Part shown: one piece after another, positions 5,005 to 61,009 of the stretch | Position numbering within the stretch: the first letter of the stretch is position 1 | How the letters are laid out: every line of letters begins with the position of its first letter | NCBI GenBank assembly: GCA_040900375.1 | Contig: JBBDZC010000015.1 | Location: forward strand, 8,366-72,365 | Source of the DNA: Candidatus Anderseniibacteriota bacterium | GTDB taxonomy: Bacteria > Patescibacteriota > Andersenbacteria > UBA10190 | Direction of reading: 5' to 3' | Length of the DNA stretch: 64,000 bases | The notes under the pieces: model-generated | What the model was told of the DNA's origin: nothing | The model's input: only the letters and a program-made list of their open reading frames with translations | Database searches by the model: none | Made by a program: the position numbers and the translations under genes

Positions 5005-5330
5005 TTAAGGGCAAAAATAGCTATACATCTGTCCTTCTCACAATTAATAATGTGTTTAAAGAACCACTTTGTGGTACTGTCGATGGCTCTTTAAATTTAC
5101 AGGAATCGTCCTGGCAACGTGACGGCAAGTAAATGGCCGCCTCTACTATATACTTTTCCGTAATCGGCCGCCGCCGTCAAGAACGCCAAGCGGATGATTG
5201 ACAGCTCTGCCTGACACTACCCGCTTCATCAATGAAATATTTTTCGCGCACGGCAGCCGCTTCTACCTAAAAACTGGTTACAGCCAAAGTCTATGAAACA
5301 TACATTGTTGCTAAGTACCGACAGCCCCAT

Positions 5331-5888
5331 CTAAACACGCTCGACATAGGTCCCCGTTCGGGTGTCGATGCGAATAATATCCCCCTCGTTAATAAACAGT
5401 GGCGCTTTGACACGCCGCCCTCCCTCAATCACGACTTCTTTCATGACATTAGTAGAAGTATCGCCCCGGATACCAGGCGGAGCTTCAATTACTCGACGCT
5501 CAATCTTGATCGGCATATCAAGACTGACCGGCTTGCCCTCGAAGAAGAGAATTTCGATTGTCTGTCCCTCCAGTAAATATTGGAGGAGATCGCCCAGAAG
5601 TGCTGCTGATAGTTCAATCTGTTCGTAGGTACTTTGGTCCATAAACGTGTAGACATCGCCACTGCCAAAGAGATACTGGAACCCTTTGCGCTCAATCTCT
5701 GCTTCTGGCACCTTATCTGACTGCTGAAAAGAATGTTCTCGTGTCTGCCCAGTTTTAATGTGCTTAAGAATAGAACGAACCACCGGCTTGCGTTGTTGCT
5801 TACGCAAAAACTCTGCCGAGACCACCACGTACGGCTCACCATCTAAATTAATCATTTTGCCCTTACGAATGTCGTTAAGCCCTAACAT
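5331..5888 (-). CDS. efp: elongation factor P
   Basis: full-length similarity to EF-P: N-terminal KOW-like MxxxNDIRKG, then OB domains; 185 aa. Confidence 0.9.
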   Translation of the reverse strand: MLGLNDIRKGKMINLDGEPYVVVSAEFLRKQQRKPVVRSILKHIKTGQTREHSFQQSDKVPEAEIERKGFQYLFGSGDVYTFMDQSTYEQIELSAALLGDLLQYLLEGQTIEILFFEGKPVSLDMPIKIERRVIEAPPGIRGDTSTNVMKEVVIEGGRRVKAPLFINEGDIIRIDTRTGTYVERV

Positions 5889-5933
5889 AGCGTAGTTACC
5901 ATAGCGCAGGATACGGGTGTTTGACTAGATGCT

Positions 5934-6308
5934 CTACTGCCCCTCCGCAAACGTGCAGTCAGGGAGGAGCGAAACCCGTGTCCCATCGTTCATTAAACAA
6001 TTTCGGCCTGGCGTCAGCACTCTCGCCATTCCCGGCATAGGTGACAAAGACTCTTCGAGCCGCGGCGCAAAGACACTTTCGACCGGCGGCGTAATCTTGA
6101 GCGGTGGAAAATGCGGTAAAGACATGCTCCTGTCATCAGCCAGCAGGGGACGCACGCTGGGCTCTTCTCCTCCCTCTGGCAACTGGAAAAAAGCCAGCCA
6201 GCGAGATGCAGAAAACGGCCCAAAGGTCGCATAACCCGCTCCCAACAATATGCCGCCCAGCAGGAAGATGGTTAAAATAAGAATCCGCACGGTGCGCCAC
6301 AATACCAT
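5934..6308 (-). CDS. membrane-anchored hypothetical protein
   Basis: N-terminal TM helix; co-directional with and just upstream of efp. Confidence 0.35.
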   Translation of the reverse strand: MVLWRTVRILILTIFLLGGILLGAGYATFGPFSASRWLAFFQLPEGGEEPSVRPLLADDRSMSLPHFPPLKITPPVESVFAPRLEESLSPMPGMARVLTPGRNCLMNDGTRVSLLPDCTFAEGQ

Positions 6309-6382
6309 ATATGTCTTTGCCCGCTCTTAAAATAAATTCTGACAACAACCAACCTCTCTCTCTACTCTTGTACGCCCCAAAT

Positions 6383-6533
6383 GTCAACCCATTCGACTCC
6401 ACGGTCTAAAGGCCGTGGCTTGCTTAAGGGTTGACTCTAAAGCCGCGCGTATCTCCACCCTGAAGGGTGGAGCTTGCGCGAGTCGAAGAGTCAACCTGAG
6501 TTAGTCGAAGGGTGAGCCGATCGAATGGGTAAG
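6383..6533. repeat. nested-palindrome repeat family, copy 1 (MITE/REP-like)
   Basis: core 6383-6496 is essentially identical to 58634-58746 and related to 17310-17418. Contains hairpins ccaccctgaagggtgg and gggttgactct...agagtcaacc, plus terminal inverted repeat cccattcgac...gtcgaatggg. Confidence 0.7.
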
Positions 6534-6686
6534 TCATGAGCACTTACCCAGAAAAATTTAGTTGCCCCCTGATCTCCCTCGCCTGCTCCTGAACTCATAT
6601 TTCTTGGAACTTCTGGCATAGCTATGTACACTAAATAAAGGTGATATTAAATCATAACTACTTCTTTATAAGGAGGTGAGTTAGAT

Positions 6687-6833
6687 ATGATGGGAACATG
6701 TAAGAGCTGTGGCGCAGAGAATGTAGAAGTCAACGAGCAGGGTTTGTGTGCTAATTGCGCCGCTAAGACGGATGGACAAGCAGGTGGACCAGGAAGTGCG
6801 GATACTCCTGGTGGGGACATGGCAGCTGCCTAA
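6687..6833 (+). CDS. small zinc-ribbon protein (48 aa, CxxC...CxxC)
   Basis: AGGAGGTGA RBS 7-8 nt upstream of ATG; two CxxC pairs (CKSC, CANC); followed by a strong intrinsic terminator; below the ORF-track length cutoff. Confidence 0.45.
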   Translation: MMGTCKSCGAENVEVNEQGLCANCAAKTDGQAGGPGSADTPGGDMAAA

Positions 6834-6867
6834 TACCCTAAACTCGTCGACGAGTTCTTAACCTTAC

Positions 6868-6901
6868 AAACCCCAGCCCTTATTCAGAGGCTGGGGTTTT
6901 G
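6868..6901 (+). terminator. rho-independent terminator
   Basis: aaaccccagccc-ttattcagag-ggctggggtttt hairpin plus T-run just after the small ORF stop. Confidence 0.6.
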
Positions 6902-6918
6902 TTATGTTGGGACCTTAT

Positions 6919-7695
6919 TTATAGCACTAATTGGTGCCCATGTTGGCGTAACCAGCGCCGGTGCTGCGCGTAGCTAGGATCCCAGGCCGATACCATCTGC
7001 CAAAAGGCAGGCGAGTGGTTAGCATGCTGCAGGTGGGCGACTTCATGAGCGGCTACTGAATAAGCTATTACCTCCGGTCCCAGGACTAACCGCCAGTTAA
7101 ATGACAGGCGGCCTTGTCCAGAACAACTCCCCCACTGGGTAGTCTGCTCGCCAATGCGAATCGACCGAATATGAATTCCCCGGGGGGCACCAAGCTCCTG
7201 GCAAACACGGGAGAAATATTCCCGCGCCTGCCGGCGGTACCAGCGGGCGAGCACCGGTCGGATAAGGGTTTGCGGGTGAGTGGTAACAGTGAGATAGCTT
7301 CCGGCAAGCTCCACTCGAGAACGACGGCTCTGCTCCCGCTGGCAGAGTGTCAAAATATACTCGTGCCCAAGCAGTGGTAGATACTCGCCTGCCGTAAATG
7401 TCCGCCGCGGTATTGTCCGGCCACGAACTTGGTAGCGATCAAGACAGCGCTGGAGCCAGGCTTTTTTGTGGGCAACAAATTGATGGGCAACCGACCCTGA
7501 CATGCGCCACGGTAGCACGACTTCAATCTCACCGCGCGCGTCAACATGTAGTAAAACATGCCGTGCTCGTCGGCTCCGGCGTACGCCATAGGCATGCTGC
7601 TGCCCATCTGCCAGGATGGTATAATGCCAAGACACAAGAGCAGAGGCTCGCTTATTTTTTTCTTTACCTTTACGACGCATTTGGGTATGGTTCAT
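6919..7695 (-). CDS. DUF45/YgjP-like M48-family zinc metallopeptidase
   Basis: HEVAHLQHANHSPAFW (HExxH plus downstream H/W) characteristic of the YgjP/SprT-like DUF45 family. Confidence 0.65.
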   Translation of the reverse strand: MNHTQMRRKGKEKNKRASALVSWHYTILADGQQHAYGVRRSRRARHVLLHVDARGEIEVVLPWRMSGSVAHQFVAHKKAWLQRCLDRYQVRGRTIPRRTFTAGEYLPLLGHEYILTLCQREQSRRSRVELAGSYLTVTTHPQTLIRPVLARWYRRQAREYFSRVCQELGAPRGIHIRSIRIGEQTTQWGSCSGQGRLSFNWRLVLGPEVIAYSVAAHEVAHLQHANHSPAFWQMVSAWDPSYAQHRRWLRQHGHQLVL

Positions 7696-8536: not shown

Positions 8537-9325
8537 TTATCGGGCCTCCTCGCCGCGTTCCACCTGTATTTGTTGGTAAATCTTTTCCGCATGCCGAAAA
8601 TCATCAGGGGTATCTAAGTCAGTGCTGGTACGAGGGTCTAACACGTACCCATGAATATTGTCGCCCCAGACATTGTCGTACTGTAAACACTCGGGACGGA
8701 GAACAAATTTTCGCCGTGTGATATCAATTTGTCCATCTTGAAAGTACACCGGAAAGAGCTCTTGGATTTTCTGCCGAGGTTGATCAGGCCCGCGCTGCCG
8801 GCGGTACTTGCTATCAAACACGGGAATTAATTTGCCATCTTTCTGTCGCTGCCACATTTTATAAGGGTGCAGCGGCGTGGGAATAACACTCTTGAGTCCA
8901 TCGGCCCCTGTCTGCTGCAGGTGAGTAATGGCTTCATCAATGTCAGCGGGAAACCGCAAGGGGCTGGTCGGCCGTAAATTGACGAGCAGTTCGGGTATCC
9001 AATCAAACTCGGCTTCCATCCAAGTGACCGCGTGGTGGTAAAATCCGGCGTCCCCGCTGGTAGGCTGGGAATATTCACTCGGGCGCGGGGCTACCAGTGC
9101 TCCCAACTTCCGGGCTTCGTCGGCGATCTCGGCATCTTCGGTAGAAACAATCACCGCATCAATTTTCTCGGCCGCCAACGCTACTTCTACTGCCCACGCC
9201 AGCAGCGTTTTACCGCCTAGTTTTTGCAGGTTCTTCCAGGGAGTACTTTGTTTTCCGGCGCGGGCTGGGATAATCGCTACCACCTCGACTGGCTCTCGCT
9301 TGGGGTTACTGACTTTATTTTTCAT
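8537..9325 (-). CDS. acylneuraminate (nonulosonic acid) cytidylyltransferase, NeuA/CMP-NulO synthetase family
   Basis: N-terminal IIPARAGKQ (cytidylyltransferase P-loop-like motif shared by NeuA/KdsB); about 260 aa. Confidence 0.7.
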   Translation of the reverse strand: MKNKVSNPKREPVEVVAIIPARAGKQSTPWKNLQKLGGKTLLAWAVEVALAAEKIDAVIVSTEDAEIADEARKLGALVAPRPSEYSQPTSGDAGFYHHAVTWMEAEFDWIPELLVNLRPTSPLRFPADIDEAITHLQQTGADGLKSVIPTPLHPYKMWQRQKDGKLIPVFDSKYRRQRGPDQPRQKIQELFPVYFQDGQIDITRRKFVLRPECLQYDNVWGDNIHGYVLDPRTSTDLDTPDDFRHAEKIYQQIQVERGEEAR

Positions 9326-9389
9326 GCTTGCTTATTACCATGTCCTCGACAAAAAACCAAGCGCCACCCACACTAACAACAACCTCATT

Positions 9390-10331
9390 ATGGCGTTACC
9401 CTCTCGTCCCCTTGGCAATAACTCACTCTTTGTTTCATTGCTCGGTTTAGGCACGGTTGAAATCGGGCTGCCGTATGGCATTGGCGTGAGCGACTTGCCG
9501 AGTGAAGCAGAAGCTGAACGGATTTTGAGAACGGCAGTCGAGCTTGGTATCACCTATATTGATACCGCTCGCGGCTATGGGGTGGCGGAGGAGCGGATTG
9601 GAAAATCGGGCGTAGGTAAGTTCCCGGGAGTTGTTATCGGCACGAAATGCGCGCAGTTTTTAAAACAGGAACCAAATCTACACGGAATGGAACTGGAGCA
9701 AAGAATCCGCGAAGAAGTTGATGTGAGCCGTAAGAATCTTAATCAAGAAACCCTGCAATTACTCCAGCTCCATATTGAGTTGGCCAACTACATTGATTAC
9801 CGCGAACTCATAGAGATTATGCAAAAATTGATTGCGGAAGAAAAAGTCGCGCATGTCGGCATCGCTACCCGTGACGAAGCAGGGCCGCTTAATGCTTTGC
9901 AGAGTGATTTCTTTACCACAGTGCAGACCGCCTACAACATTTTAGACCAACGGATGGCTAAAAATGTTTTGCCGAAAGCTCAAGAAAAACATGTTGGTAT
10001 TATTAGTCGCTCCGTGTTACTCAAAGGGGCTCTTACCCCCGCCGCCCAGAAACTGCCAGAGGTACTCGCGCCACTCAAAGAAAATGCTCAAAAAGCGGCA
10101 AAGATTGCCCAAGATGCCGGCCTTGATTTACCGGCTCTAGCTCTACGATTTGTCATCTCCAACCCCGCTGTTTCTACCGCGCTCATTGGCACAGTCACCC
10201 CGGCGCACTTACAAACGGCAATTGCCGCTACTCAAGCCGGCCCACTTCCGCCTGATATCCTCCAGGCCCTCTATGGCCTGGCGATTAATGATCCGGCGCA
10301 AGTCGATCCGGCTAACTGGCCGCTAGTTTAA
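9390..10331 (+). CDS. aldo/keto reductase
   Basis: AKR signatures (LGTVEIG, ITYIDTARGYG). Start taken at internal ATG (MALPSRPLG) because the ORF-track start overlaps the divergent neuA-like gene. Confidence 0.8.
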   Translation: MALPSRPLGNNSLFVSLLGLGTVEIGLPYGIGVSDLPSEAEAERILRTAVELGITYIDTARGYGVAEERIGKSGVGKFPGVVIGTKCAQFLKQEPNLHGMELEQRIREEVDVSRKNLNQETLQLLQLHIELANYIDYRELIEIMQKLIAEEKVAHVGIATRDEAGPLNALQSDFFTTVQTAYNILDQRMAKNVLPKAQEKHVGIISRSVLLKGALTPAAQKLPEVLAPLKENAQKAAKIAQDAGLDLPALALRFVISNPAVSTALIGTVTPAHLQTAIAATQAGPLPPDILQALYGLAINDPAQVDPANWPLV

Positions 10332-10811: not shown

Positions 10812-10953
10812 AATAGGAACTCCCTTACAATTTAAAGTACGCTTTCGAAGTGCCTACTCAAAAGATGTAGGGCTTTAGTACAAAGAACCCCTTCGTATTA
10901 TTACCATACTGGAGAAGGATCTACTATAACAACCTCCTTAACCTTTTTTAACT

Positions 10954-11085
10954 GGGCGGGTGGCACGGTCAGGTTTTGTCTCGCTCGGCATCGTTTCCGG
11001 AGGGTGCCACCCTGAATTTATGAAGGGTGGGACGGCCGGAACTAGATGCAAGCCGAGTACAAAACCTGCCGTGACAGGACCCGCC
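10954..11085. other. highly structured palindromic element (candidate ncRNA/cis element or degenerate repeat-family member)
   Basis: nested inverted repeats: gggcggg/cccgcc outer, 17-nt ggcacggtcaggttttgt/acaaaacctgccgtgac, gtttccgg/ccggaac, and ccaccctgaa-tttatgaa-gggtgg core shared with the 3-copy repeat. Confidence 0.4.
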
Positions 11086-11856
11086 TTACCACGCCGTCCA
11101 TCCCCCATCCACCACTAACTCCGCTCCGGTCATATAGCTGGCCGCGTCTGATGCCAGAAAAACGAGTGGTCCACCCACTTCTTCTGGCTTGGCCATGCGC
11201 CCCAGGGGCGTGCGTAAGCCGTATTGTTCCTGGAAGGCCGCGTCGTGCTCCTTGAAGACACCACCGAGCGTAAGTGTATTAGCGCGAATGCCTTGGGCGC
11301 CGTAGGTAGTAGCCAGCCATTTGGTGAGCATGCGCACCCCACCCTTAGTAATCGCGTAGTCCACAGGTTTTTGCGCGCCCGCCGGATAAATCCGCTGATC
11401 AGGCCCGACCAGACCATAGATTGAGGAAATATTAATAATGTGACCCTGCCCGGCCGACAACATGTGCTTAACCGCCGCTTGGGCGACAAGCGTATAGCCC
11501 AGTAAATTGACATCAAGGCTCTGACGCAGCAGCGCGGGCGGATAATGCTCAAAAAGTTCTTGGTTCTGCTGGACCGCAGCATCAAACTTAGGATCAATGG
11601 CCGCGTTATTAACAACGACATCAAGATGCTGATGCTGGGCAACAACGGCGGCAAAACCCTCGGCAATAGATATGGGACTAGTGACATCCATGGTGATATC
11701 CGCCTGCTTTGCAATGTCAGTGACTACGACAGTGGCACCGGCGGCCGTAAGCGCGTGAGCAAAATGCTGGCCTAAAAAACCAGCACCGCCGGTAATGAGA
11801 ATAACTTTCTGGCTTAAGTTAAAAGGATGATCAGTCATGTAAGATCCATTATCCAC
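11086..11856 (-). CDS. SDR family NAD(P)-dependent oxidoreductase
   Basis: TGGAGFLG Rossmann motif near N-terminus; classical SDR length (256 aa). Confidence 0.8.
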   Translation of the reverse strand: MDNGSYMTDHPFNLSQKVILITGGAGFLGQHFAHALTAAGATVVVTDIAKQADITMDVTSPISIAEGFAAVVAQHQHLDVVVNNAAIDPKFDAAVQQNQELFEHYPPALLRQSLDVNLLGYTLVAQAAVKHMLSAGQGHIINISSIYGLVGPDQRIYPAGAQKPVDYAITKGGVRMLTKWLATTYGAQGIRANTLTLGGVFKEHDAAFQEQYGLRTPLGRMAKPEEVGGPLVFLASDAASYMTGAELVVDGGWTAW

Positions 11857-11871
11857 GACCCGAAAACGGCT

Positions 11872-12552
11872 CTACTCCCCCAGCACCGCATCAATTGCCG
11901 CTTGTAACCCCGACAGGCTGTACTGCCCCGTAAATTGGACATCATTGATAAAAAGCGAGGGCGTCCCTTGTAGACGCAACGCTTGTGCATCCACTAGATC
12001 TTGTCGGACCGCTTCCCGGTGCATCCCTTCATCGAGCGCTCGTTTAAATTGTTCGAGTTGCAAGTCCACCGTTTGGGCATGCTCTTCCAGGCCACTGCGA
12101 TCAAGCTTATTTTGGTTCGCAAATAAGACATCATGAAATTCCCAGAATTTGCCCTGAAGCTGTGCCTCGACGGCCGCTTCGGCCGCCAGTTGCGCGTGTT
12201 CATGAATTGCCGTTAGAGGAAAATGTCGGTACACGAAGCGCACAGGCTGTTCGGCATTGTTTTTCTTTAACTCTTGTAAGATCGGATGAAGCGCGCCACA
12301 CGCCGGACACTGAAAATCCCCAAACTCTACGACGGTGACTTTCGCATCAGCTGGCCCAAGTACAGGATCATCCGCGCGCACTAAACGCTCGGGCTGGTCA
12401 ACCGGGGCTTGCGGATCACGCGTGCCGCTGCCTGCCAAAAAAGCGCCGCCAATAATAATCAAGAGAGTGAGCGTCAGGACGCCAGCTAAAATCTTAGTCT
12501 CGCTTGTCATAATCATTGGTAGACAGTGTACTCCATACCAAGGCAAAGGCAA
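11872..12552 (-). CDS. DsbA-family thiol:disulfide oxidoreductase (membrane-anchored)
   Basis: CPAC active site in thioredoxin fold (FGDFQCPACGALHP); N-terminal TM anchor; start overlaps the VKOR gene stop. Confidence 0.75.
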   Translation of the reverse strand: MPLPWYGVHCLPMIMTSETKILAGVLTLTLLIIIGGAFLAGSGTRDPQAPVDQPERLVRADDPVLGPADAKVTVVEFGDFQCPACGALHPILQELKKNNAEQPVRFVYRHFPLTAIHEHAQLAAEAAVEAQLQGKFWEFHDVLFANQNKLDRSGLEEHAQTVDLQLEQFKRALDEGMHREAVRQDLVDAQALRLQGTPSLFINDVQFTGQYSLSGLQAAIDAVLGE

Positions 12553-12910
12553 CCAGCGTTAGCACCGCACTTACCACACACCAGCGGCACCACGCCTCAA
12601 TCACAAACGCCTCCAGGTAGGTCAGCCAAATAGAAACAACCAGCCCAATGCCAGTCAGCAGAAGCAGGGGAAAGTGGAGTCGGCGATACCACGGCGGTGT
12701 CCACAAAATAGCGGACACGCCCAGCAAGACATAAAAAATAATACCGTAGAGGGGAGTGGGTAAACCAAAAAGGTGGGCATAGGCGCTTCCCCGGACCTCC
12801 TCACAGCCGCCGCTCCCGCAAAGAATAGGGCCGCCACTGGTGTAGGTAATATAGAGGTAGCCGGAGATGAGCAGGCCCAAGATGGCAATAACGAACAAAG
12901 CTTTACGCAT
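12494..12910 (-). CDS. vitamin K epoxide reductase (VKOR) family protein
   Basis: 4-TM protein with loop cysteines (CGSGGC) and CRWC redox motif; adjacent to DsbA as in DsbB-less bacteria. Confidence 0.75.
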   Translation of the reverse strand: MRKALFVIAILGLLISGYLYITYTSGGPILCGSGGCEEVRGSAYAHLFGLPTPLYGIIFYVLLGVSAILWTPPWYRRLHFPLLLLTGIGLVVSIWLTYLEAFVIEAWCRWCVVSAVLTLVAFALVWSTLSTNDYDKRD

Positions 12911-12919
12911 GCCTGAAAA

Positions 12920-13729
12920 TTACTGTGCTCGCTTGCGCACCACGACTACCATACCAGTAGCCGCCAGCCACGGGGAAATAGCCGTCAGTACCTTTTGGAC
13001 CGCCCGGCCTGCCATGTTGAGCTTATAGGGCTCGGCTCCCCGGAAGATACGCCAGTCAACATACAGTCCATAGTGGCCATGGCTTTCGGGCAATTCGTGC
13101 GGACGCGTTTCAAGAACTTCAAACTGGGCCACCTGCAGACGCCTAAGGAGAGTCGCCCGGACAAACAAATAATGGGCAAAGGTTGGCTTTTCCCCTTGGC
13201 GGGTTTTCAAGAGAAACTCTAGACGCTTGAGAGGAATGTAGAATAAGCGCCGCAAAATATTAGCCGACGGCACTTCCATAAAAAAGATACCGCCCGGTTT
13301 TAAGACCCGATGTACTTCCCGCAACGCTTGCGGCATCTCGTCTTCCACGTATTCCAGTGTGCCGATGGCCAGCACACCGTCAAAGTACTGGTCGGGATAC
13401 GGTATCTGGGTAATAGACGCCACTTTGACCCTGATATCCGGATCATATTCTGTCAGGGCTCGCACCGTTCGCGCCGCCGTATCAATCCCTTCCACGTTAT
13501 ACCCCTCATCGCGCAAAAACAGGATCCAGCCCCCGATCCCACAGCCGGCATCTAAGTACTGCCGGCCGGGGCGAAAATATTTTTGCAGCAGCGGCCAAAA
13601 ACCTTGCTGCCGAAAATCGTCGGTACTTTTGCCGGCAATATGTTCGCGGGCATACTTATCTTCCCAATAGCGATCGGGATCAAAGTTCGCGGGGTAGAAT
13701 TTATGAATCTTGTACATCACCTTTTTCAA
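12920..13729 (-). CDS. class I SAM-dependent methyltransferase
   Basis: motif I LDAGCGIGGW; about 270 aa. Confidence 0.75.
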   Translation of the reverse strand: MKKVMYKIHKFYPANFDPDRYWEDKYAREHIAGKSTDDFRQQGFWPLLQKYFRPGRQYLDAGCGIGGWILFLRDEGYNVEGIDTAARTVRALTEYDPDIRVKVASITQIPYPDQYFDGVLAIGTLEYVEDEMPQALREVHRVLKPGGIFFMEVPSANILRRLFYIPLKRLEFLLKTRQGEKPTFAHYLFVRATLLRRLQVAQFEVLETRPHELPESHGHYGLYVDWRIFRGAEPYKLNMAGRAVQKVLTAISPWLAATGMVVVVRKRAQ

Positions 13730-13747: not shown

Positions 13748-15673
13748 TTACTTCATGTAGGGCTTTAAATGCTCGAGAGCTTGTAAGAACCCGCGGCCCC
13801 CATGTAAATGACCCTGCCAAATTTCCGGTACCATAGTGTAGGCGTAGCCTTGTAAGGGCTGCAAGGTGGCGGCCCAATCAATAGTACCACTGCCGATCTG
13901 CAAACCCTCGTCACCTACCCCCGCCCCATCGGCCACGTGCAGGTGGCGAATATAGGGCTTGAGCAGCGTGATCATTTCTACCAACGACACGTGGGCCACA
14001 TTACAGGCTAATGCCGCGTGCGACGTATCAAAACACATATTATATCCCGTGGCGTCTAAGAAGGCTTTAATTTCCGGACCAAGCAGGAAAATATTCGTCA
14101 CCCACTCTCCCCCAAACACCCACGGCCGCGGCGGTAAATTTTCTGGCAGCAATTCTACGTCGGCAGCGCGTAGCTGCGACAGAGTATCAGCAAAGATATC
14201 TAAAAACTTTTGCGGGTTCTCGACCGGCTTTAACGTTATGCCACCCGGATGAATAATAAATGAGGGTTTGCCTTGAAACGACTCGGCTAACCGCCGTGTG
14301 AGATCAATACTCCGCTGCAGTGTTGTAATTGCCAGCTGGCGTTCTTCCAGGTCCTCCGCCGCGGGGTTTAAGTAATGGCGGTGCATATACTCGGGCGCAT
14401 GGACAACGAGCTGCTGCGGATATTTGCCCGTCGGCAACGTTTCCTCTAAATCTTTATCACTCAAATGAAATTCAAAGAGCGCGGGCTGATACGGCAAATA
14501 CTGGGCAAAGTCGTTGAAGCGCACGACCGGCCCCCAGGCCCAAGGAATAGACGAACCATCAAAAGCCTTCAACTCTTTAACGCTCTTAATATCATCAAGA
14601 GTCAGCGCATCCCCCGCAAAAATATCTCGCTGGGCGACAATCCCTACCACGTCATGCATGCGCTGGGGCGACAATCCCTTGGCTGGGCTTTTAGTGGTGA
14701 GCATGTCGCGTGTTATAGTCGTGCCATCAGCGATAAAACGAGCCGCCACAATACTTTTAGCGAGCAGCTCTCGATTCATAATTTCTCCCCGCGAGAGCTG
14801 TTTTTGGGGCTGGCCGATGGCTTGCTCCACTTCCCGAATGCCGGTCACCATGGCCGCAAACTCGGCCGGCAACAGGCTCGCTTTATGATCTGGACCTTCG
14901 AGGTTTTTATCAACGGTCAGGTGACGCTCAATAATGCAGGCCCCGCGCGCTACAGCAGCAATCGCTACGGCTATTCCCCGCTCGTGGCCGGAGTAGCCAA
15001 TGGGCACCCGGTAGCGCGCTAATTTCTCCATGAAGCGCAAATTAATTTCATCGAATGGCGCTGGATACGTGCTATTGCAATGCAGCAGCGCAAAATCAAT
15101 ACCCAGCGTGCGTAGGAATGCCACCCCAGTGGCAATTTCGGGGGCTTCACTCATGCCGGTTGAGACAATCATGGGCTTTTTAGTCCGCGCGATGTATTCC
15201 AATAATTCATTATTGGTAAAATCCGGAGAGCCAATTTTATAGAGCGGTACATGCAGCAGCGCCTCAATGACATCACAGCTTTTTTTATCCCAGGGGTTCA
15301 CCATAAATAATATGCCCCGCTCCTGGGCATAGTGTTCCAGCGCCACAAAGGCTTCATCGGGCAGTTCAAATTCTTGCAGTAAGGGAATTAAGTACTGATA
15401 CTTTTGCTCGGCGCTATTGGGGTTTTCTAAAATCTTACTTTGATACACCTCGGCTAAGTTTCGCTTCTGGAATTTCACCGCATCGGCGCCCGCGGCAACC
15501 GCCGCATCAATCAACGCTTTGGCGCGCTCCAGGCTGCCATTGTGGTTAATGCCGGCTTCCGCAATAACAAAAGTCGGCTCGCCCGGGCCGATTTTCCGTG
15601 CTCCGACTATAAGGGGGGTCACTGACATAGGGGTATGTGTAGTATAGCACTGGTCTTCTGTCCAGAGCTTCAC
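13748..15673 (-). CDS. N-acetylneuraminate (nonulosonic acid) synthase NeuB-like, fused to a C-terminal sugar-phosphate isomerase/epimerase-like TIM-barrel domain
   Basis: N-terminal residues about 15-350 match NeuB (FVIAEAGINHNGS, SAF-like C-terminal subdomain). An extra about 290 aa (…HLSDKDLEE…FIIHPGG…HLHVADG…) resembles the xylose-isomerase-like TIM-barrel family. Confidence 0.7.
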   Translation of the reverse strand: MKLWTEDQCYTTHTPMSVTPLIVGARKIGPGEPTFVIAEAGINHNGSLERAKALIDAAVAAGADAVKFQKRNLAEVYQSKILENPNSAEQKYQYLIPLLQEFELPDEAFVALEHYAQERGILFMVNPWDKKSCDVIEALLHVPLYKIGSPDFTNNELLEYIARTKKPMIVSTGMSEAPEIATGVAFLRTLGIDFALLHCNSTYPAPFDEINLRFMEKLARYRVPIGYSGHERGIAVAIAAVARGACIIERHLTVDKNLEGPDHKASLLPAEFAAMVTGIREVEQAIGQPQKQLSRGEIMNRELLAKSIVAARFIADGTTITRDMLTTKSPAKGLSPQRMHDVVGIVAQRDIFAGDALTLDDIKSVKELKAFDGSSIPWAWGPVVRFNDFAQYLPYQPALFEFHLSDKDLEETLPTGKYPQQLVVHAPEYMHRHYLNPAAEDLEERQLAITTLQRSIDLTRRLAESFQGKPSFIIHPGGITLKPVENPQKFLDIFADTLSQLRAADVELLPENLPPRPWVFGGEWVTNIFLLGPEIKAFLDATGYNMCFDTSHAALACNVAHVSLVEMITLLKPYIRHLHVADGAGVGDEGLQIGSGTIDWAATLQPLQGYAYTMVPEIWQGHLHGGRGFLQALEHLKPYMK

Positions 15674-15809: not shown

Positions 15810-16404
15810 TCAACTTGCGAGAAGGACAGCCGGGCTCCGCGAGCCCCAGCCACCGCCGAGCCAGCCGTCGCCCCAGAACCAGTGCCCGCTCTCGAAGCAC
15901 AGAGAGCGCACGCAGAGGTCGCCGTCAGCGTCCCGGTAGATGGTGCCCCAGAAGTAGATGTAGAGGGTGTTGCCCTGCTCATCCACCTTCCACTCGTCGG
16001 GGACGAGATGGGGATGCCGGATCAGGTAGTCGAGGACGTTCGCGTTGAGCACGGGCCGTTCCGCCAGTTCCCGACGCAGCTTGTTGCCCTCGATGGACTT
16101 CTCGCCGCGCTGGTTGTCCGACAGGTAGAGTGACAGCTTGGACGGATCCCAGGAAAACTGGCCGCCCTTCTTGTGCTCCTCCACCTTCCAGTCCTCGTAA
16201 GGCAGAAGGGGGTCGGCGTCGCAGTCGATGACGTGCTTGGCCTGCGTCAGCCCGGCGTGACCGCGAACGAAGCAGAGCAGTTGACGGAGCTTTTCCTCGC
16301 TCTGCGCCAGGACGGTGAAGTCCTTGGGCTCGAAGCCCGCCTTGCAGGCCGTGAGGACCAGCTCGTGAGCCAGACCAACGCTGATGTCAGACGACGTAGC
16401 CATG
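15810..16404 (-). CDS. hypothetical protein in GC3-rich compositional island (likely horizontally acquired)
   Basis: third-codon-position G/C bias much stronger than neighbours. AAGGAG RBS 9 nt upstream of ATG at 16402-16404 (MATSSDIS...). No recognisable domain; W/G-rich C-terminal tail. Confidence 0.45.
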
Positions 16405-16663
16405 CTACACATCTCCTTGGTGGTGACACATCCCGGAACAACCAGGACACATCGATGAACGAAGCAACTGTTGCTCTTCAAGAGAGCAGGCTAGGCCACC
16501 CTAGGCTTTGCCACAGCAGAAAAAGCCCTAGAAAGACACTCTCTGCCGTGGCAAATATCGCAAGTACTATTGAAAAGAACTGCCAAAATACTAACTTATA
16601 ATTATACTCCTATTTCCTCACAATGTCAACCCCGTTAGAGCCAGGCTGTCTCGCCAGAGCCTT

Positions 16664-17470
16664 TTAAGGTGAAGCGCGGGCTCGCCTCGCCGAAGCCTTA
16701 GGCGAAGGGCGGGTCTCTAATGGGGTCAAAACCGCGCGGACAGGAGCGCCATCGAGATCCACCGCCAAGGGCAGGCAGAGTAGTTCATAGTCTCCTGCTT
16801 CCACCTCTGCCAACCACAATCCTTCGATAATTATAATCCCGGCGTCGAGTAACATTTTATGGACGGTATCGCGAACACCTCTTTTCTTGACTGACGGCCC
16901 GTCAATACCGACGAGTTTTACTCCGCGCGCGACCAGCTCTTTGGCCGCACTTTCTGCGAGTGCCACAAAGTCGGGATCAAAAATTTCGAGTGAACCGGCA
17001 GAATTACTAGTTTTAAAGAGCACGCGCTCACCGGCAACCGGCGGTATATCGGCTGCGACAATAGTGTCAGCAGTGGCCGTAAGATCAATCACGACGCAGC
17101 GTCCACATAACTGTTCTAATGAATACATTGCCGTACCATGACCCCTGGGTGTTATGTGAGCCGGGGCGTCAATGTGGGTACCGGTATGAGAACCTAAAAT
17201 TATTTGCGTTAATGCACTCGAGGTAGCTGAAGCTTGCGCATGCGGTGTTAGGTGCACCGGAGGATTGCCAGGGTAAATAGCCAGGCGCTCATTAATCGGC
17301 CGGGTGATGTCAACCCATTCGGCGCCCCGGTCTTTTAAGACCGTGGTTTGCTTAGGGGTTGACTCTGAGCGTTTATCTTTGCCCTGAAGGGCCGAGCTGG
17401 CGCGAGTCGAAGAGTCAATCATTTTTTCCCTTAACGGCATGTCCTCCAAATTCCCGGCGCAGCGCCGCAA
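16664..17470 (-). CDS. cyclase-family protein (kynurenine formamidase-like metal-dependent hydrolase)
   Basis: HTGTHIDAPAH cyclase motif. Start uncertain: the M-initiated start MIDSS is at 17422 and its first codons lie inside repeat copy 2, but an upstream alternative start at 17470 is possible. Confidence 0.7.
   Translation of the reverse strand: MRRCAGNLEDMPLREKMIDSSTRASSALQGKDKRSESTPKQTTVLKDRGAEWVDITRPINERLAIYPGNPPVHLTPHAQASATSSALTQIILGSHTGTHIDAPAHITPRGHGTAMYSLEQLCGRCVVIDLTATADTIVAADIPPVAGERVLFKTSNSAGSLEIFDPDFVALAESAAKELVARGVKLVGIDGPSVKKRGVRDTVHKMLLDAGIIIIEGLWLAEVEAGDYELLCLPLAVDLDGAPVRAVLTPLETRPSPKASARRARASP
17310..17418. repeat. nested-palindrome repeat family, copy 2 (diverged)
   Basis: gtcaacccattc...ccgtggtttgcttaggggttgactct...gccctgaagggc...gagtcgaagagtcaa aligns with copies 1 and 3, with compensatory changes in the central hairpin. 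Confidence 0.6.
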
Positions 17471-21383: not shown

Positions 21384-22136
21384 CTACGACTGCAAAGCCT
21401 GTTCCACAACCGCTTTAACCTGTTCATATGGCAAGGCCCCGGGAACAGGAAACTTTTGTCCACTAGGACCAACCACCACCGAGTAGGGTGTGCCGCGCGC
21501 GCCAGCTGCTTGCGCATCGGATATATCGGTCTGGATTCTTTCATCATATTTCGTTGAATTAAGACAAGCAGCAAATTGAGCTTGGTTAGGCACCCCCACT
21601 TCCTGCGCTAATTGCGGCAGTTCTTCAAGCTTGAGACCATCATTCGAGGGAGTAACTTCATAAATTTTATCGAGCAACTCCCAGAATTTACCCTGCTCCC
21701 CTGCACATTCAGTGGCCACCGCTTCGGCCTTGGCTTGACTATGAAGCTGCTCAATCGGGAAGTGTCGATATACCCAGCGCACATCTTGGGGATACTCGGA
21801 GAGCAGCCGCTGCATAGTAGGATGGAAGCGTTTACAGAAAGGACACTCCAAGTCAGAATATTCAATCACTGTCACTTTGGCGTTCTCTGGTCCGCGCGTG
21901 TGATCAGCCGCCGTGATCGGCCTGAACTCCCCGACGGCCGGCTCTACAGGGGCCGGAGGCGGCGGAGACGCTACGGTCCCTGCCACGCTAGGATCATTAG
22001 TAGCGGGGGAGGTAGCAGGCCCTCCTCCAAAGTAGATTGCCAGAGCAATTAAACCGCCCGCCATAACGATGGCCGCCGGCACACCAATATTACTAACCGT
22101 CGGTCGGGGCTCTACCGGAGGATTGGGAGTGTCCAT
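21384..22136 (-). CDS. DsbA-family thiol:disulfide oxidoreductase, second paralog
   Basis: CPFC active site (SDLECPFCKRFHP); N-terminal TM/Pro-rich linker. Confidence 0.7.
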   Translation of the reverse strand: MDTPNPPVEPRPTVSNIGVPAAIVMAGGLIALAIYFGGGPATSPATNDPSVAGTVASPPPPAPVEPAVGEFRPITAADHTRGPENAKVTVIEYSDLECPFCKRFHPTMQRLLSEYPQDVRWVYRHFPIEQLHSQAKAEAVATECAGEQGKFWELLDKIYEVTPSNDGLKLEELPQLAQEVGVPNQAQFAACLNSTKYDERIQTDISDAQAAGARGTPYSVVVGPSGQKFPVPGALPYEQVKAVVEQALQS

Positions 22137-34735: not shown

Positions 34736-36013
34736 ATGTCCTTCCCTCTTCAAGACCGCACCGAGACGGACCAGCTCTTTCAGACGCGCTCAACCTGCCG
34801 CTTGTGTGCCAGTCAAGACTTGCAGCAATTATGGTCCTTTGGGACTACCCCACTGGCCAATGCGTATCTTAAACCCGAACAAATTGGCCAATCAGAAGCT
34901 TTTGTACCATTGACGGTCTCGCAATGCGCTACGTGCCATCTTGTGCAAATGCCGCATGTTGTTTCCCCGGAAATTCTTTTTGCCAACTATCATTATCTTT
35001 CCTCCACCTCACCGAGCTTTGTGGCCCACTTTGTTCAATATGCTCAAGCTCTCAGGCAACGATTCCACCTGACAGAACAATCGCTCGTGGTTGATATTGG
35101 CAGCAACGATGGCGTACTCTTAAAGCCCTTGCGCGACGCTGGCATACGGGTCCTCGGTATTGAACCAGCCCAGAACATTGCGGCGATGGCACTCACCGAA
35201 GGCATTGAGACAATTGCCCAGTTTTTTACTCCCCCGCTCGCGAGCGCGCTTGCCAGCAGTCATGGCCAAGCAGACATTATTACTGCCAATAACGTATTTG
35301 CGCACACTGATACAGTGGATGTTTTTGTCGCGGCGGTGCGCACCTTGCTCAAACCCGAGGGAGTATTCATTTTTGAGGTCCAGTATTTAGGCGATCTCGT
35401 GGAGAAAAACTTATTTGATATCGTCTATCATGAGCATCTCTGTTACTACCACCTTACCCCGCTTATTCCCTTCTTTGCTGCCCAGGGCTTGCAAGTTTTT
35501 GATGTCGAGCGGCAGGATGTTCATGGTGGATCACTGCGAGTATTCGTGCAACATCAAGGGGGACCCCACCATCCTTCTGCCCGACTATCCCAAATCCTAG
35601 CCGCCGAAGAACAGCAGGGGCTAAACCGCGTCGCGACGTACACTGATTTTGCCAAGCGTGTTGCTCATAACAAGCATAAATTACAAACCCTCATTCGCAC
35701 ACTCAAAAATGATGGCAAGCGCATTGTCGGTTACGGCGCCCCCGCCAAAGCTACCACTTTGCTTTACGCCTTTGACATCGATCACATCCTCCTCGACTAC
35801 ATTGTCGACGACGACAAAAAGATAAAGCAGGGTCTGGTGATGCCGGGCAACCACATTCCTATTGTCGCCCCCGAGAAGCTCTACAAAGACAAGCCCGATT
35901 ACTGCTTGATTCTTGCCTGGAACTTTGCCCAACCCATTATCCAAAATCATCAGCGCTTTACCGCGCAGGGAGGACAGTTTATTATTCCTATACCAGAGCC
36001 AACTGTTGTCTAA
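34736..36013 (+). CDS. NDP-hexose C-methyltransferase (zinc-finger N-terminus + SAM methyltransferase + C-methyltransferase C-terminal domain)
   Basis: N-terminal CRLC...CATCHL zinc-binding pair, SAM motif VVDIGSNDG, C-terminal domain typical of TylC3-type sugar C-methyltransferases. Confidence 0.65.
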   Translation: MSFPLQDRTETDQLFQTRSTCRLCASQDLQQLWSFGTTPLANAYLKPEQIGQSEAFVPLTVSQCATCHLVQMPHVVSPEILFANYHYLSSTSPSFVAHFVQYAQALRQRFHLTEQSLVVDIGSNDGVLLKPLRDAGIRVLGIEPAQNIAAMALTEGIETIAQFFTPPLASALASSHGQADIITANNVFAHTDTVDVFVAAVRTLLKPEGVFIFEVQYLGDLVEKNLFDIVYHEHLCYYHLTPLIPFFAAQGLQVFDVERQDVHGGSLRVFVQHQGGPHHPSARLSQILAAEEQQGLNRVATYTDFAKRVAHNKHKLQTLIRTLKNDGKRIVGYGAPAKATTLLYAFDIDHILLDYIVDDDKKIKQGLVMPGNHIPIVAPEKLYKDKPDYCLILAWNFAQPIIQNHQRFTAQGGQFIIPIPEPTVV

Positions 36014-37132: not shown

Positions 37133-37164
37133 GTCCCGTGCAGTCTCATTAAGCTTTTATCACT

Positions 37165-38139
37165 ATGGTCAACATAGCGCTCATCGGCGTGGGCCGGTGG
37201 GGAATAAATATTTTACGGACCTTGCCCCGCATTGCTGGCTGTCGGGTAGCGGCAATCTGTAACACCGATACCACAGATGCTTCAGCGCTATTAACATCCC
37301 CCGCTGCCATTATCACCCGTGATTATCACGAGTTGCTCGGCCGCCCAGACATTGATGGCGTGATTATTGCTACCCCTGCTACTACCCACACAACTATCGC
37401 TCTCCCCTTCATCAAGCGGGGCACCCCTACGTTTATCGAGAAACCCTTAGCAACCGATGAAGTTTCTGCTGTCGCCCTCCAAGAAGCGGCCCGCCTTAAA
37501 AATACGCTTGTGATGGTAGGCCATATTCATCTCTATAATCCCGCCTATCTCACGCTCAAAAGCCTCGTCACAAAAATCGGCAAGATTCGTTTGGTGCTGT
37601 TCGAGGGCATGAATAATGGACCTTACCGCTCTGACACATCAGCCCTGTGGGATTGGGCCCCCCATGATGTCGCCCTCGCTCTTGATCTCTTACGCTCTGA
37701 ACCCGACCACATTCAAGCCTGGGGAATTAACGTCCTGCGCCCGACCACCAACTTATACGACGTCGCTGCTCTCAAAATGTCATTTCCTAATAACGTGCAA
37801 GTACTTTCCCTGGTAAGTTGGCTGTCACCAGAAAAACGCAAAAAACTTACCGTGATTGGCGAAAACAGTACCGTGGTCTTTGATGATACCGCCGCCAAAA
37901 AAGTTATTTTCTATGAGAACATGGGACCCCAGGTGCAAGCAGAAAACGTGACACGGCAAGAACCAACAATTTCTTATCCTCACTATAGCAGTGAGTCGCC
38001 GCTGCAGCGGGAACTTCAAGCTTTTATCCAAAGTATCTCCACTCACCAAGTTCCCCCAACGTCTCTTGAGCAAGGCGTGACTACCGTACGCATCATCGCC
38101 GCCGCCGAAAAATCTATTGCCGCTCACTCTAGCGCCTAG
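37165..38139 (+). CDS. Gfo/Idh/MocA-family oxidoreductase
   Basis: N-terminal IALIGVGRWG Rossmann plus the EKP motif (FIEKPLA) of the family. Confidence 0.8.
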   Translation: MVNIALIGVGRWGINILRTLPRIAGCRVAAICNTDTTDASALLTSPAAIITRDYHELLGRPDIDGVIIATPATTHTTIALPFIKRGTPTFIEKPLATDEVSAVALQEAARLKNTLVMVGHIHLYNPAYLTLKSLVTKIGKIRLVLFEGMNNGPYRSDTSALWDWAPHDVALALDLLRSEPDHIQAWGINVLRPTTNLYDVAALKMSFPNNVQVLSLVSWLSPEKRKKLTVIGENSTVVFDDTAAKKVIFYENMGPQVQAENVTRQEPTISYPHYSSESPLQRELQAFIQSISTHQVPPTSLEQGVTTVRIIAAAEKSIAAHSSA

Positions 38140-61003: not shown

Positions 61004-61009
61004 AATGAA

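Follow-up and report, generated by a model that had tools for sequence, protein, structure and literature searches.

A second TIM barrel fused to a NeuB-family synthase: a widespread, probably bifunctional enzyme of a predicted CMP-ulosonic acid pathway

What does a second enzyme barrel do when it is joined to a synthase of the sialic acid type? The question is raised by a gene in a 64,000-nt stretch (hereafter the window) of contig JBBDZC010000015.1 from a Candidatus Anderseniibacteriota bacterium, a member of the candidate phyla radiation (CPR), in which a NeuB-family domain and its SAF (antifreeze-like) domain run on in the same reading frame into a triose-phosphate isomerase (TIM) barrel. 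Capsules, flagella, S-layers and wall polymers carry nonulosonic and related ulosonic acids, which influence recognition by immune systems, phages and toxins; the known routes to them use either five or six dedicated enzymes (the neuraminic (Neu), legionaminic (Leg) and pseudaminic (Pse) acid pathways) or a synthase, a haloacid dehalogenase (HAD) phosphatase and a transferase of cytidine monophosphate (CMP), as for 3-deoxy-D-glycero-D-galacto-nonulosonic acid (Kdn) and 3-deoxy-D-manno-octulosonic acid (Kdo). A first-pass annotation of the window had proposed that the fused barrel might supply the missing sugar rearrangement step of a variant nonulosonic acid pathway. We consider it highly probable that the fusion is a genuine bifunctional enzyme and the signature of an uncharacterised CMP-ulosonic acid pathway, most likely with a Kdn-like product, and for the barrel we tentatively prefer a different job.

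The fusion is a single uninterrupted open reading frame (ORF) on the minus strand, a strand which the first-pass annotation had left unstated; the plus-strand reading of 13748–15673 is full of stops and was rejected. In its maximal form the frame spans 13748–15673 and encodes 641 aa from a GTG codon, and an ATG at 15628, sixteen codons inside it, gives a protein of 626 aa (13748–15628, minus strand). In the homologue search this 626-aa form was 100% identical to a protein (P0001) deposited from a Candidatus Andersenbacteria (CPR) metagenome-assembled genome. Because of this identity, and because nearly all close homologues have 626 aa, we took the ATG at 15628 as the start of the gene, which it almost certainly is, and the GTG at 15673 was rejected. 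The gene and its domains are as follows.

13748..15628, minus strand: fusion gene, NeuB-SAF-TIM barrel (ORF list, translation, identity to P0001, Pfam)
14804..15514, minus strand: NeuB-family catalytic barrel, predicted to condense phosphoenolpyruvate (PEP) with an aldose, residues 39–275 of the 626-aa protein (Pfam, PDB sequence matches, conserved residues)
14585..14758, minus strand: SAF/antifreeze-like domain, residues 291–348 (Pfam SAF and alignments)
13751..14560, minus strand: C-terminal TIM barrel of the xylose-isomerase/endonuclease-IV superfamily, probably metal-dependent, residues 357–626 (Pfam, AlphaFold, Foldseek, PDB profile, residue statistics)

In the numbering of the 641-aa form, Pfam NeuB (PF03102) covers residues 54–290 (E 2.4e-80, 269.9 bits against a cut-off of 22.1, model positions 1–240 of 241), SAF (PF08666) covers 306–363 (E 1e-9, 39.2 bits against 21) and AP_endonuc_2 (PF01261, xylose isomerase-like TIM barrel) covers 421–638 (5.8e-20, 72.5 bits against 31.1). 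All three lie above their cut-offs, which bears out the first-pass description of a NeuB-like region and SAF segment fused to an isomerase-like TIM barrel, and the motifs quoted there (FVIAEAGINHNGS, FEFHLSDKD, FIIHPGG and HLHVADG) are all present in the translation. The extra tail after the NeuB region, which had been put at some 290 residues, does exist and has a length of about 270 aa (residues 357–626). An AlphaFold model of the full-length fusion was of moderate quality (pLDDT 75.8, pTM 0.47), too uncertain to judge the orientation of the domains.

The first half of the protein is a NeuB-family synthase in the broad sense. Searched against PDB sequences, it matched SpsE (5.7e-48), Neisseria meningitidis NeuB (1.4e-44) and PseI (1.1e-43), with about 35–40% identity in the printed alignments. 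Residues E24, K52, Q54, K131, S134, S156, Y188, S213, H215, H236 and D247 are present in the window protein and are at least 91% conserved in the 68 full-length representatives described below; the aligned residues of N. meningitidis NeuB are E25, K53, Q55, K129, S132, S154, Y186, S213, H215, H236 and D247. From the published NeuB structure we take H215 and H236 to be metal-binding and the set to include the PEP/aldose site. Since the metal- and PEP-binding residues are conserved, the condensing chemistry of this half should be intact. In comparison with N. meningitidis NeuB, the loop at residues 62–92 has three additional residues, and close homologues conserve it strongly. Moreover, the protein falls under the cut-offs of both the NeuB equivalog of NCBIfam (TIGR03569, 343.5 bits against 399.65) and the PseI equivalog (TIGR03586, 242.1 bits against 340.25), and an orthologue of NeuB proper or of PseI was rejected on these scores; by these scores and by gene context for LegI, the protein is best placed in the NeuB family outside the NeuB, PseI and LegI functional groups.

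The SAF domain aligns with type III antifreeze protein, with PseI and with the antifreeze-like domain of human sialic acid synthase. Its loop reads TKSPAKGLSP (family form (K)SPxxGL.P), with Ser314 where bacterial NeuB has Arg314, a residue which reaches into the active site of the partner subunit and is reported to be essential in N. meningitidis NeuB. Arg is found at this position in N. meningitidis NeuB, SpsE and PseI (the 4IPI and 4IPJ chains show Ala); in the present family Ser occupies it in 51 of the 68 representatives, and Arg is never among the commonest residues. Human sialic acid synthase, which uses 6-phosphorylated sugars, also has no Arg in the aligned loop, and this common loss is a weak hint, by analogy, toward a phosphorylated substrate. 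The conserved-looking Lys of the loop was considered as a phosphate-binding mark and dropped, because it is not conserved family-wide.

The fusion is by no means peculiar to the window. All three domains occur in each of the 120 best homologues, which are 62–82% identical to the window protein and mostly 626 aa long, so that the conservation in related genomes that the first-pass annotation had wished to see is there. When the C-terminal 270 residues alone were searched against 1.8 billion cluster representatives, 605 matches were obtained at E <= 1e-3, which is a small family, and 68 of the best 150 barrel-subfamily representatives were full-length fusions: 33 of them have about 600–680 aa (NeuB-SAF-barrel), and 35 have about 730–775 aa with extra N-terminal CBS domains. 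Several of the shorter barrel matches are fragments that start within NeuB or sit on contigs of about 1 kb. The barrel subfamily is nearly always joined to NeuB-SAF, either alone (about 630 aa) or with N-terminal CBS domains (about 750 aa). A relative of the barrel was present in at least 586 species genomes in a scan of one genome per species, made with an 8-sequence barrel alignment; the neighbourhood statistics given here refer to the 80 best loci of that scan (numbered L001 etc.), among which Chloroflexota and CPR dominate. The loci kept come from CPR lineages, many Anaerolineales and other Chloroflexota, Desulfobacterales (Desulfamplus magnetovallimortis and Desulforapulum autotrophicum), Elusimicrobia, Doudnabacteria and one Woesearchaeota archaeon. 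Many cultivated Actinobacteria carry the CBS type (Actinomyces, Rothia, Kocuria, Micrococcus, Arthrobacter, Sinomonas, Phycicoccus and Microbacterium), which is also found on the chromid of Ensifer canadensis. The window protein aligns colinearly with the Actinomyces fusion, at 40% identity across both enzyme domains, and therefore the two halves were inherited together; on this alignment, the fusion is old and kept as a unit.

Could the fusion nevertheless be an artefact, in which two genes were joined by a sequencing or assembly frameshift or by a chimeric contig? The halves do lie in different ORFs at a few related loci (L006, L052, L060 and L065). At L006 (2527–4422) the linker that joins the domains contains a single in-frame TAG, L052 and L065 have frameshifts that resemble assembly errors, and L060 is probably similar. 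The window has one continuous frame, with no frameshift between the halves, and the same single ORF recurs across several phyla in hundreds of assemblies made independently, some of them complete genomes of cultivated Actinobacteria; hence the chance of an artefact is negligible, and the fusion in the window is a genuine single gene, with frameshift or chimera excluded. Among the split loci, the only clean two-gene arrangement is that of the Woesearchaeota archaeon (L030, 8906–10939), where NeuB-SAF and the barrel are separate adjacent genes with an intergenic spacer and the second gene has its own start codon. That split pair is followed by a methyltransferase gene and then by a gene for a 656-aa protein with a weak Epimerase_2 match.

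Thousands of such proteins are already present in public databases, so the architecture is not newly discovered: NCBI names them 'N-acetylneuraminate synthase family protein', and the name given to homologues by JGI is 'sialic acid synthase SpsE/sugar phosphate isomerase/epimerase'. Our full-text literature search found no paper discussing the NeuB-barrel fusion. Taken by its sequence, the fusion would be a widespread, uncharacterised bifunctional ulosonic acid synthase.

The company that the gene keeps points to the pathway in which it may act. The genes that come after the fusion on its strand of the window, with gaps of 9–18 nt, encode a class-I S-adenosylmethionine (SAM) methyltransferase, a VKOR and DsbA pair and a PtmA-like short-chain dehydrogenase/reductase (SDR); beyond the SDR lie a 135-aa ORF, an oppositely oriented aldo-keto reductase gene and then the gene of a cytidylyltransferase with a CTP_transf_3 domain. 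The three neighbours that the first-pass annotation had named, a NeuA-like CMP-transferase, an SDR and a SAM methyltransferase, are thus all in place.

8537..9325, minus strand: CTP_transf_3 cytidylyltransferase, candidate CMP-ulosonic acid synthetase (Pfam 1.2e-16; NCBIfam PseF at 91 bits and KdsB subfamilies, all under cut-off)
9300..10331, plus strand: aldo-keto reductase, start codon uncertain, conserved in the CPR version of the cluster (Pfam Aldo_ket_red 1.6e-37, synteny)
11086..11856, minus strand: PtmA-like classical SDR (Pfam adh_short_C2 2.6e-40; NCBIfam PRK09186 at 153 bits and PtmA at 113.7 bits, both under cut-off)
12920..13729, minus strand: class-I SAM methyltransferase, 18 nt 3' of the fusion, conserved beside it in CPR loci (Pfam, synteny)

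An assignment of the aldo-keto reductase as PtmF was dropped, because no PtmF-type model matched and PtmF is listed merely as a 326-aa 'oxidoreductase'.

The CTP_transf_3 cytidylyltransferase is the most constant partner of the fusion and lies adjacent to it in CPR, Chloroflexota, Woesearchaeota, Doudnabacteria, Actinomyces, Ensifer and one capsule locus; the enzyme of the window is 34% identical to the Actinomyces partner. The pair stands among glycosyltransferase genes or within polysaccharide loci. Other CPR genomes have the order fusion, methyltransferase, SDR, aldo-keto reductase, cytidylyltransferase, with VKOR/DsbA in some only. In Chloroflexota the order is SDR, cytidylyltransferase, fusion. 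In 56 Chloroflexota loci a protein of about 560 aa with a weak Capsule_synth (KpsC/KpsS-type) match (E 1.5e-7) is encoded within about 2 kb 3' of the fusion, usually immediately after it; these genes (of the type at 10883–12568) are very well conserved among the 56 loci, and in 33 Chloroflexota loci the KpsC/S-like gene is followed by a class-I methyltransferase weakly similar to that of the window. KpsC and KpsS are beta-Kdo transferases which use CMP-Kdo, and the 560-aa protein is a candidate transferase for the ulosonic acid. At the locus L048, a gene for an ATP-sulfurylase/adenosine 5'-phosphosulfate kinase fusion (5086–7197) stands ahead of the module.

In Actinomyces graevenitzii, in a Wza/Wzi/Wzy capsule locus and in Ensifer, the cytidylyltransferase is directly followed by the CBS-type fusion within an ordinary polysaccharide locus, and these two are the only genes there that are apparently dedicated to the sugar acid. 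An SDR is kept with the fusion in CPR and Chloroflexota and an aldo-keto reductase in CPR; neither is adjacent to the fusion in these three CBS-type loci. In Ensifer, a gene for a bifunctional mannose-6-phosphate isomerase/GDP-mannose pyrophosphorylase lies directly upstream of the module. A ManC-like gene of this kind was also looked for in the other loci and in the window and was found nowhere but at the Ensifer locus, and a general association of the fusion with mannose genes was dropped on that account.

Many Chloroflexota loci carry a second ulosonic acid module, formed by a CTP_transf_3-HAD phosphatase fusion (about 400–475 aa) and a NeuB of about 296 aa without SAF, which lies a few kb from the NeuB-TIM fusion or directly upstream of it (L021, L023, L024, L033, L039, L044, L045, L047, L051–L053, L057, L060 and L070; for example L024 2994–5332 and L023 6654–8854). 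In the same loci the cytidylyltransferase beside the NeuB-TIM fusion has no HAD domain. One Chloroflexota module has its phosphatase joined to the transferase, and the other has its barrel joined to the synthase.

What these loci lack also bears on the product. We found no Epimerase_2 (NeuC) or DegT homologue among any of the window ORFs by phmmer with DegT and Epimerase_2-like queries, in agreement with the first-pass remark that no NeuC-type 2-epimerase was visible. The Pfam-annotated parts of the window (about 0.5–25.5, 29–31.7 and 34.7–52.4 kb) hold no gene for a hydrolysing 2-epimerase (NeuC/LegG) and no dehydratase, aminotransferase or acetyltransferase genes of the PseB/C/H/G or LegB/C/H types, and NeuC, PseB/C/G/H and LegB/C/G/H-type genes are also absent from the conserved module in the related loci. 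By Pfam annotation, the fusion module has no HAD domain, whether in the window or in the related loci. Because no NeuC, aminotransferase or 4,6-dehydratase accompanies the fusion, we favour a non-aminated, Kdn-like sugar, for which a common hexose phosphate, for instance mannose 6-phosphate, would be the starting material. The minimal pathway would consist of the fusion and the cytidylyltransferase: the NeuB-SAF module would condense PEP with an aldose or aldose phosphate to a 3-deoxy-2-ulosonic acid, and the end product would be a CMP-activated ulosonic acid for a cell-surface glycan. From the constancy of this pair we infer a CMP-3-deoxy-ulosonic acid that starts from a common metabolite, as opposed to a legionaminic- or pseudaminic-type 5,7-diamino sugar. 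In the Andersenbacteria (CPR) version the methyltransferase, the PtmA-like SDR and the aldo-keto reductase may tailor the sugar. Kdn is the obvious candidate, because it needs no amino-sugar genes, because of the mannose-6-phosphate isomerase gene in Ensifer and because Actinobacteria are known for Kdn-containing teichulosonic acids.

The C-terminal barrel is the part whose role has to be decided. An AlphaFold model of this domain, built from a diverse alignment, is a confident (beta/alpha)8 barrel (pLDDT 93.9, pTM 0.93). Foldseek against PDB returned 144 chains at E <= 0.001, and the listed top 50 all belong to the xylose-isomerase-like superfamily. The best match was MJ1311 of Methanocaldococcus jannaschii (3WQO; E 1.4e-10, TM score 0.69, 22% identity), and the next matches, with TM scores of about 0.6–0.7 and 11–16% identity, were endonuclease IV/APN1, the Thermotoga L-ketose 3-epimerase, UlaE, psicose/allulose 3-epimerases, xylose isomerase, UV damage endonuclease and a keto-glucal hydratase. 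The first-pass assignment of the tail to the xylose-isomerase-like family is therefore sound (Foldseek probability 1.00, TM 0.65–0.70), and folds of isomerase and epimerase barrels are indeed among the matches. At the level of sequence the evidence leans another way. MJ1311 was found with 3.8e-9 by phmmer and with 7e-16 by a family profile run against PDB; in the profile search it was followed by five endonuclease IV proteins (1e-7 to 1.4e-3), the putative sugar isomerase 3LMZ (1.6e-3), UlaE (0.018), the 3-keto-D-glucoside 4-epimerase YcjR (0.079) and an L-ribulose 3-epimerase (0.6). By sequence profile, the barrel is thus closer to MJ1311 and endonuclease IV than to sugar isomerases and epimerases.

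The same leaning is seen in the residues (given in the numbering of the barrel domain; 356 is added to obtain the numbering of the 626-aa protein). The motifs VVHAPE, HPGG, ENxPP, CFDTSHA, HLHVAD, EGLQIGxG and PEIW line up with endonuclease-IV signatures. Of the nine residues that we take to be the trinuclear zinc ligands of Escherichia coli endonuclease IV (H69, H109, E145, D179, H182, H216, D229, H231 and E261), seven have the same residue at the aligned position of the window protein (H54, H104, E140, D178, H181, H208 and E246); where endonuclease IV has H231, the barrel family has an invariant Gly, and at the place of D229 the residue varies, next to an invariant Glu. Across the 68 full-length representatives E30, H54, D178, H181, H208, E218, G219, E246 and G250 are invariant, and D211 is present in 67. 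Barrel positions 104, 140 and 141 (protein residues 460, 496 and 497, at about 14138–14251 of the window) show a perfect three-way covariation: they read H/E/N in 20 of the 68 and (N,S,T)/Q/(T,S,N) in the other 48, with no mixed combinations. The Q flavour comprises all 35 CBS-type proteins and 13 of the 33 short-type representatives, and the H/E flavour is that of the window protein, of other CPR loci and of the Chloroflexota and Desulfobacterales sequences examined. The covarying positions 104 and 140 are those of the endonuclease-IV Zn1 ligands H109 and E145, and E140 is also the position of the first catalytic Glu of ketose 3-epimerases. Covariation without mixed pairs is what is expected for ligands of one metal site. 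The joint replacement resembles a remodelling of a single site, and the H/E and Q flavours might bind different metals or even catalyse different reactions.

These residues bear directly on the idea that the barrel is a sugar or sugar-phosphate isomerase or epimerase which acts before condensation in place of NeuC or KdsD, providing the aldose for the NeuB module from a common ketose (for example fructose 6-phosphate or ribulose 5-phosphate) or from the wrong epimer (for example by the change of a gluco- to a manno-configured sugar). Members of Pfam AP_endonuc_2 are mostly sugar isomerases, epimerases and dehydratases, the JGI name of the homologues agrees with this, Foldseek gives a probability of 1.00 and TM scores of 0.6–0.7 to L-ketose 3-epimerase, UlaE, D-psicose 3-epimerase and xylose isomerase, the window protein retains the complete Glu-Asp-His-Glu tetrad of sugar epimerases (Glu140, Asp178, His208 and Glu246), and the cluster has no NeuC or KdsD-like gene. 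The first Glu of that tetrad, however, is Gln in 48 of the 68 representatives (70%), including all 35 of the CBS type. In the tagatose/psicose 3-epimerase family a two-base mechanism operates in which both Glu are needed, and the Gln is therefore hard to reconcile with it. Moreover, the sequence profile is nearer endonuclease IV, a phosphatase would still be missing from the two-gene modules if the substrate were phosphorylated, and mannose 6-phosphate needs no dedicated isomerase. On balance an isomerase acting before condensation appears somewhat unlikely. Of the first-pass proposal, the CMP-ulosonic acid context without NeuC stands; a barrel that supplies the sugar rearrangement is possible and is not supported as it was stated, in view of the MJ1311/endonuclease-IV profile, the Gln in 48 of 68 and the two-gene loci, since a fusion and a cytidylyltransferase that are the sole dedicated genes in several lineages fit a phosphatase-like finish at least as well as an upstream rearrangement.

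A second possibility takes its support from the reductases. The barrel might cooperate with the SDR (and the aldo-keto reductase) in tailoring the sugar: the SDR would introduce a transient keto group, the barrel would epimerise or dehydrate the adjacent carbon and a reductase would bring back the hydroxyl, as in E. coli YcjS/YcjR/YcjQ, with an unusual stereoisomer or deoxy form of the ulosonic acid or its precursor as the result. The retention of the SDR in CPR and Chloroflexota and of the aldo-keto reductase in CPR would agree with this, as would the profile and fold matches to YcjR (E 0.079) and to 2-hydroxy-3-keto-glucal hydratase; the H/E flavour of the window protein is seen in CPR, Chloroflexota and Desulfobacterales, and the first two carry the SDR. 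The YcjR-type matches are very weak, however, and the fusion occurs without an adjacent SDR or aldo-keto reductase in the three CBS-type loci (Actinomyces, the capsule locus and Ensifer), so the core role of the barrel cannot depend on these enzymes unless the flavours differ in function. We regard such tailoring as quite unlikely.

The endonuclease-IV-like motifs and ligands can also be read more literally. The barrel could use an endonuclease-IV-like phosphodiesterase chemistry to free an aldose from a nucleoside diphosphate sugar such as GDP-mannose, as a functional analogue of the hydrolysing 2-epimerases NeuC and LegG minus the epimerisation; the absence of NeuC and the Ensifer mannose-6-phosphate isomerase/GDP-mannose pyrophosphorylase gene directly upstream would suit this. 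The ManC gene is confined to that one locus, with none in the other loci or in the window, and we know of no precedent for such an enzyme, which counts against it as well. A nucleotide-sugar hydrolase is very unlikely.

The role that we prefer for the barrel, and which we put forward tentatively, is that of a metal-dependent hydrolase related to MJ1311 and endonuclease IV which would remove the terminal phosphate from the ulosonate phosphate that the NeuB module would produce. Common cytoplasmic sugars are phosphorylated, and the pathways that start from sugar phosphates (those of Kdo, of Bacteroides Kdn and of animal N-acetylneuraminic acid (Neu5Ac)) need three activities, namely a synthase, a phosphatase and a CMP-transferase. 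In the two-gene modules the barrel is the sole catalytic domain without an assigned job. A phosphatase-like finishing step is preferred because of this spare domain, because of the HAD parallel in Chloroflexota and because of the lean toward endonuclease IV. The barrel would then do the job of the HAD phosphatase of known phospho-type pathways (KdsC, NANP or BT1713), and the cytidylyltransferase would go on to activate the free acid. Identified domains, a modelled fold, metal-ligand-like residues, a conserved fusion and a conserved gene order are what is observed here; the phosphatase chemistry, like the substrate and the product, is what we infer.

Several observations weigh against this role and its substrate. 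We know of no phosphomonoesterase in the xylose-isomerase-like/AP_endonuc_2 superfamily. The third metal site of endonuclease IV is incomplete in the barrel, with Gly at H231 and a variable residue at D229, and two Zn1-type ligands are gone in 48 of the 68 relatives. Foldseek ranked L-ketose 3-epimerase and UlaE as high as endonuclease IV (TM 0.67–0.70), and the epimerase tetrad of the window protein is complete. An oxidise-epimerise-reduce scheme would be in keeping with the SDR and the aldo-keto reductase that stand beside the fusion in CPR. Ensifer provides the single locus behind the mannose link, and the Kdn link to Actinobacteria is a literature lead. The boldest form of the proposal is to be taken with more reserve still: that the barrel is a new kind of sugar-phosphate phosphatase from the endonuclease-IV/MJ1311 branch, that the fusion makes a free Kdn-like acid from a hexose phosphate and PEP in one polypeptide, and that a two-gene module suffices in CPR, Chloroflexota, many Actinobacteria, rhizobia and some archaea is conceivable and, taken together, rather unlikely.

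If a phosphatase role were true, it would suggest a first function for MJ1311-like proteins, and the barrel might reveal a new catalytic use of an endonuclease-IV-like metal barrel. The fusion would mark a compact, unstudied route of very broad taxonomic range, from minimal-genome CPR, Chloroflexota, Desulfobacterales and Elusimicrobia to DPANN archaea, rhizobia and cultivated Actinobacteria, and its carriers include the human-associated Actinomyces and Rothia. Solving the reaction of the barrel would give a function to thousands of entries named 'N-acetylneuraminate synthase family protein' and would reveal the sugar on the surface of these organisms. The question can be tested directly, since cultivated hosts and soluble enzyme domains exist.

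Further features around the fusion in the window are listed here.

11065–11078: terminator-like hairpin just 3' of the SDR (consensus scan)
11872–12552, minus strand: DsbA-like thioredoxin (Pfam)
12494–12910, minus strand: VKOR (Pfam)
15810..16481, minus strand: 223-aa ORF between the promoter-like site and the fusion (ORF list)
16601..16629, minus strand: sigma-70-type promoter-like site TTGACA-17-TATAAT, 12/12 matches, upstream of the 223-aa ORF (consensus scan only)
16664–17470, minus strand: putative cyclase (PF04199, a kynurenine-formamidase-like metal hydrolase), one gene further from the fusion

An operon from the promoter-like site to the hairpin is possible; the count of promoter-like sites in the window is not above shuffled expectation. 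The 223-aa ORF has no Pfam or NCBIfam match and no homologue within the related loci. The insertion of VKOR and DsbA between the methyltransferase and the SDR is also found in L010–L013 and not in L001, L002, L004, L005, L007 and L008, and the pair are probably passengers outside the sugar pathway. Further disulfide genes in the window are a DsbA-like gene at 21384–22136 (minus strand), adjoining a cupredoxin-like gene, and a VKOR-like ORF at 60602–61009 (minus strand), a disulfide-bond toolkit that is unusually rich for a CPR genome. A putative cyclase gene lies just upstream of the fusion in L004, L005, L007, L008 and L012, directly abutting it in L004, L005 and L008, and may form part of the pathway as it occurs in CPR. 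A separate sugar-tailoring trio on the plus strand (34736–38139), some 20 kb away from the fusion, encodes a C-methyltransferase (Methyltransf_13/14), an NDP-sugar epimerase/dehydratase and an oxidoreductase of the GFO/Idh/MocA type; it hints that the genome has a second sugar pathway, for a branched or deoxy sugar. The product of a small gene at about 47.1–47.5 kb (L085 4874–5233) matches MamF_MmsF, a family resembling magnetosome membrane proteins, here in a CPR genome.

How does the fusion compare with the systems that are known? With NeuB of N. meningitidis (1XUZ), SpsE of Bacillus subtilis (1VLI) and PseI of Campylobacter jejuni (8H2C) it has in common the TIM barrel plus SAF core, His215/His236 and the PEP-site residues, and it differs from them in the 270 or so extra residues that form a second barrel, in Ser for Arg314 and in the longer 62–92 loop. 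In contrast to the canonical Neu5Ac, legionaminic and pseudaminic acid clusters, it is unaccompanied by NeuC, PseB/C/G/H and LegB/C/G/H genes.

On the side of the barrel, the closest solved relative is MJ1311 ('D-tagatose 3-epimerase-like protein'), with the common motifs HAPE, HPG, EN.P, D..H, H.H..D and E.L.IG.G. MJ1311 is a stand-alone protein, unlike the fused barrel, and reportedly keeps all nine endonuclease-IV zinc ligands, according to its structure paper, whereas the fused barrel has Gly at the last-His position. To our knowledge MJ1311 has no known function, and in our full-text literature search it was mentioned solely in the context of apurinic/apyrimidinic endonucleases. Endonuclease IV (Nfo/APN1), a trinuclear-zinc phosphodiesterase, is the second-closest family by profile and is among the top Foldseek matches; the barrel has seven of its nine ligand positions and fails the full nine-ligand set. 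There is no reason to expect DNA binding by the barrel, because it is fused to a sugar synthase and stands in a glycan-locus context. Ketose 3-epimerases, UlaE and YcjR have the same fold (TM 0.55–0.70), and their metal tetrad is present in the window protein; the barrel differs from them in its identity of at most 16%, its profile E-values of 0.018 or worse and a first Glu that is not family-conserved.

In Streptomyces coelicolor, SCO4879–SCO4881 (NeuE-like, NeuA and NeuB) form a PhoP-activated cluster that has been implicated in the synthesis of a Kdn-containing teichulosonic acid (PMC3479208, PMC13011467, PMC7831098). The cluster, a compact NeuA and NeuB module to which a NeuE-like gene belongs, lies in a locus for an actinobacterial cell-wall glycopolymer and is a lead for the fusion, not a result.

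The nearest parallel in overall logic would be the phospho-type pathways, if the phosphatase role that we prefer holds. They comprise the Kdn system of Bacteroides thetaiotaomicron (BT1714 synthase, BT1713 HAD phosphatase and BT1715 CMP-Kdn synthetase), animal NANS/NANP/CMAS and, for Kdo, KdsA/KdsC/KdsB. The fusion module would follow the same sequence of synthase, phosphatase and CMP-transferase, it has no amino-sugar tailoring genes and it keeps a CTP_transf_3 enzyme beside the synthase. It differs from all of them in that it has no HAD phosphatase, and an unrelated TIM barrel is joined to the synthase instead.

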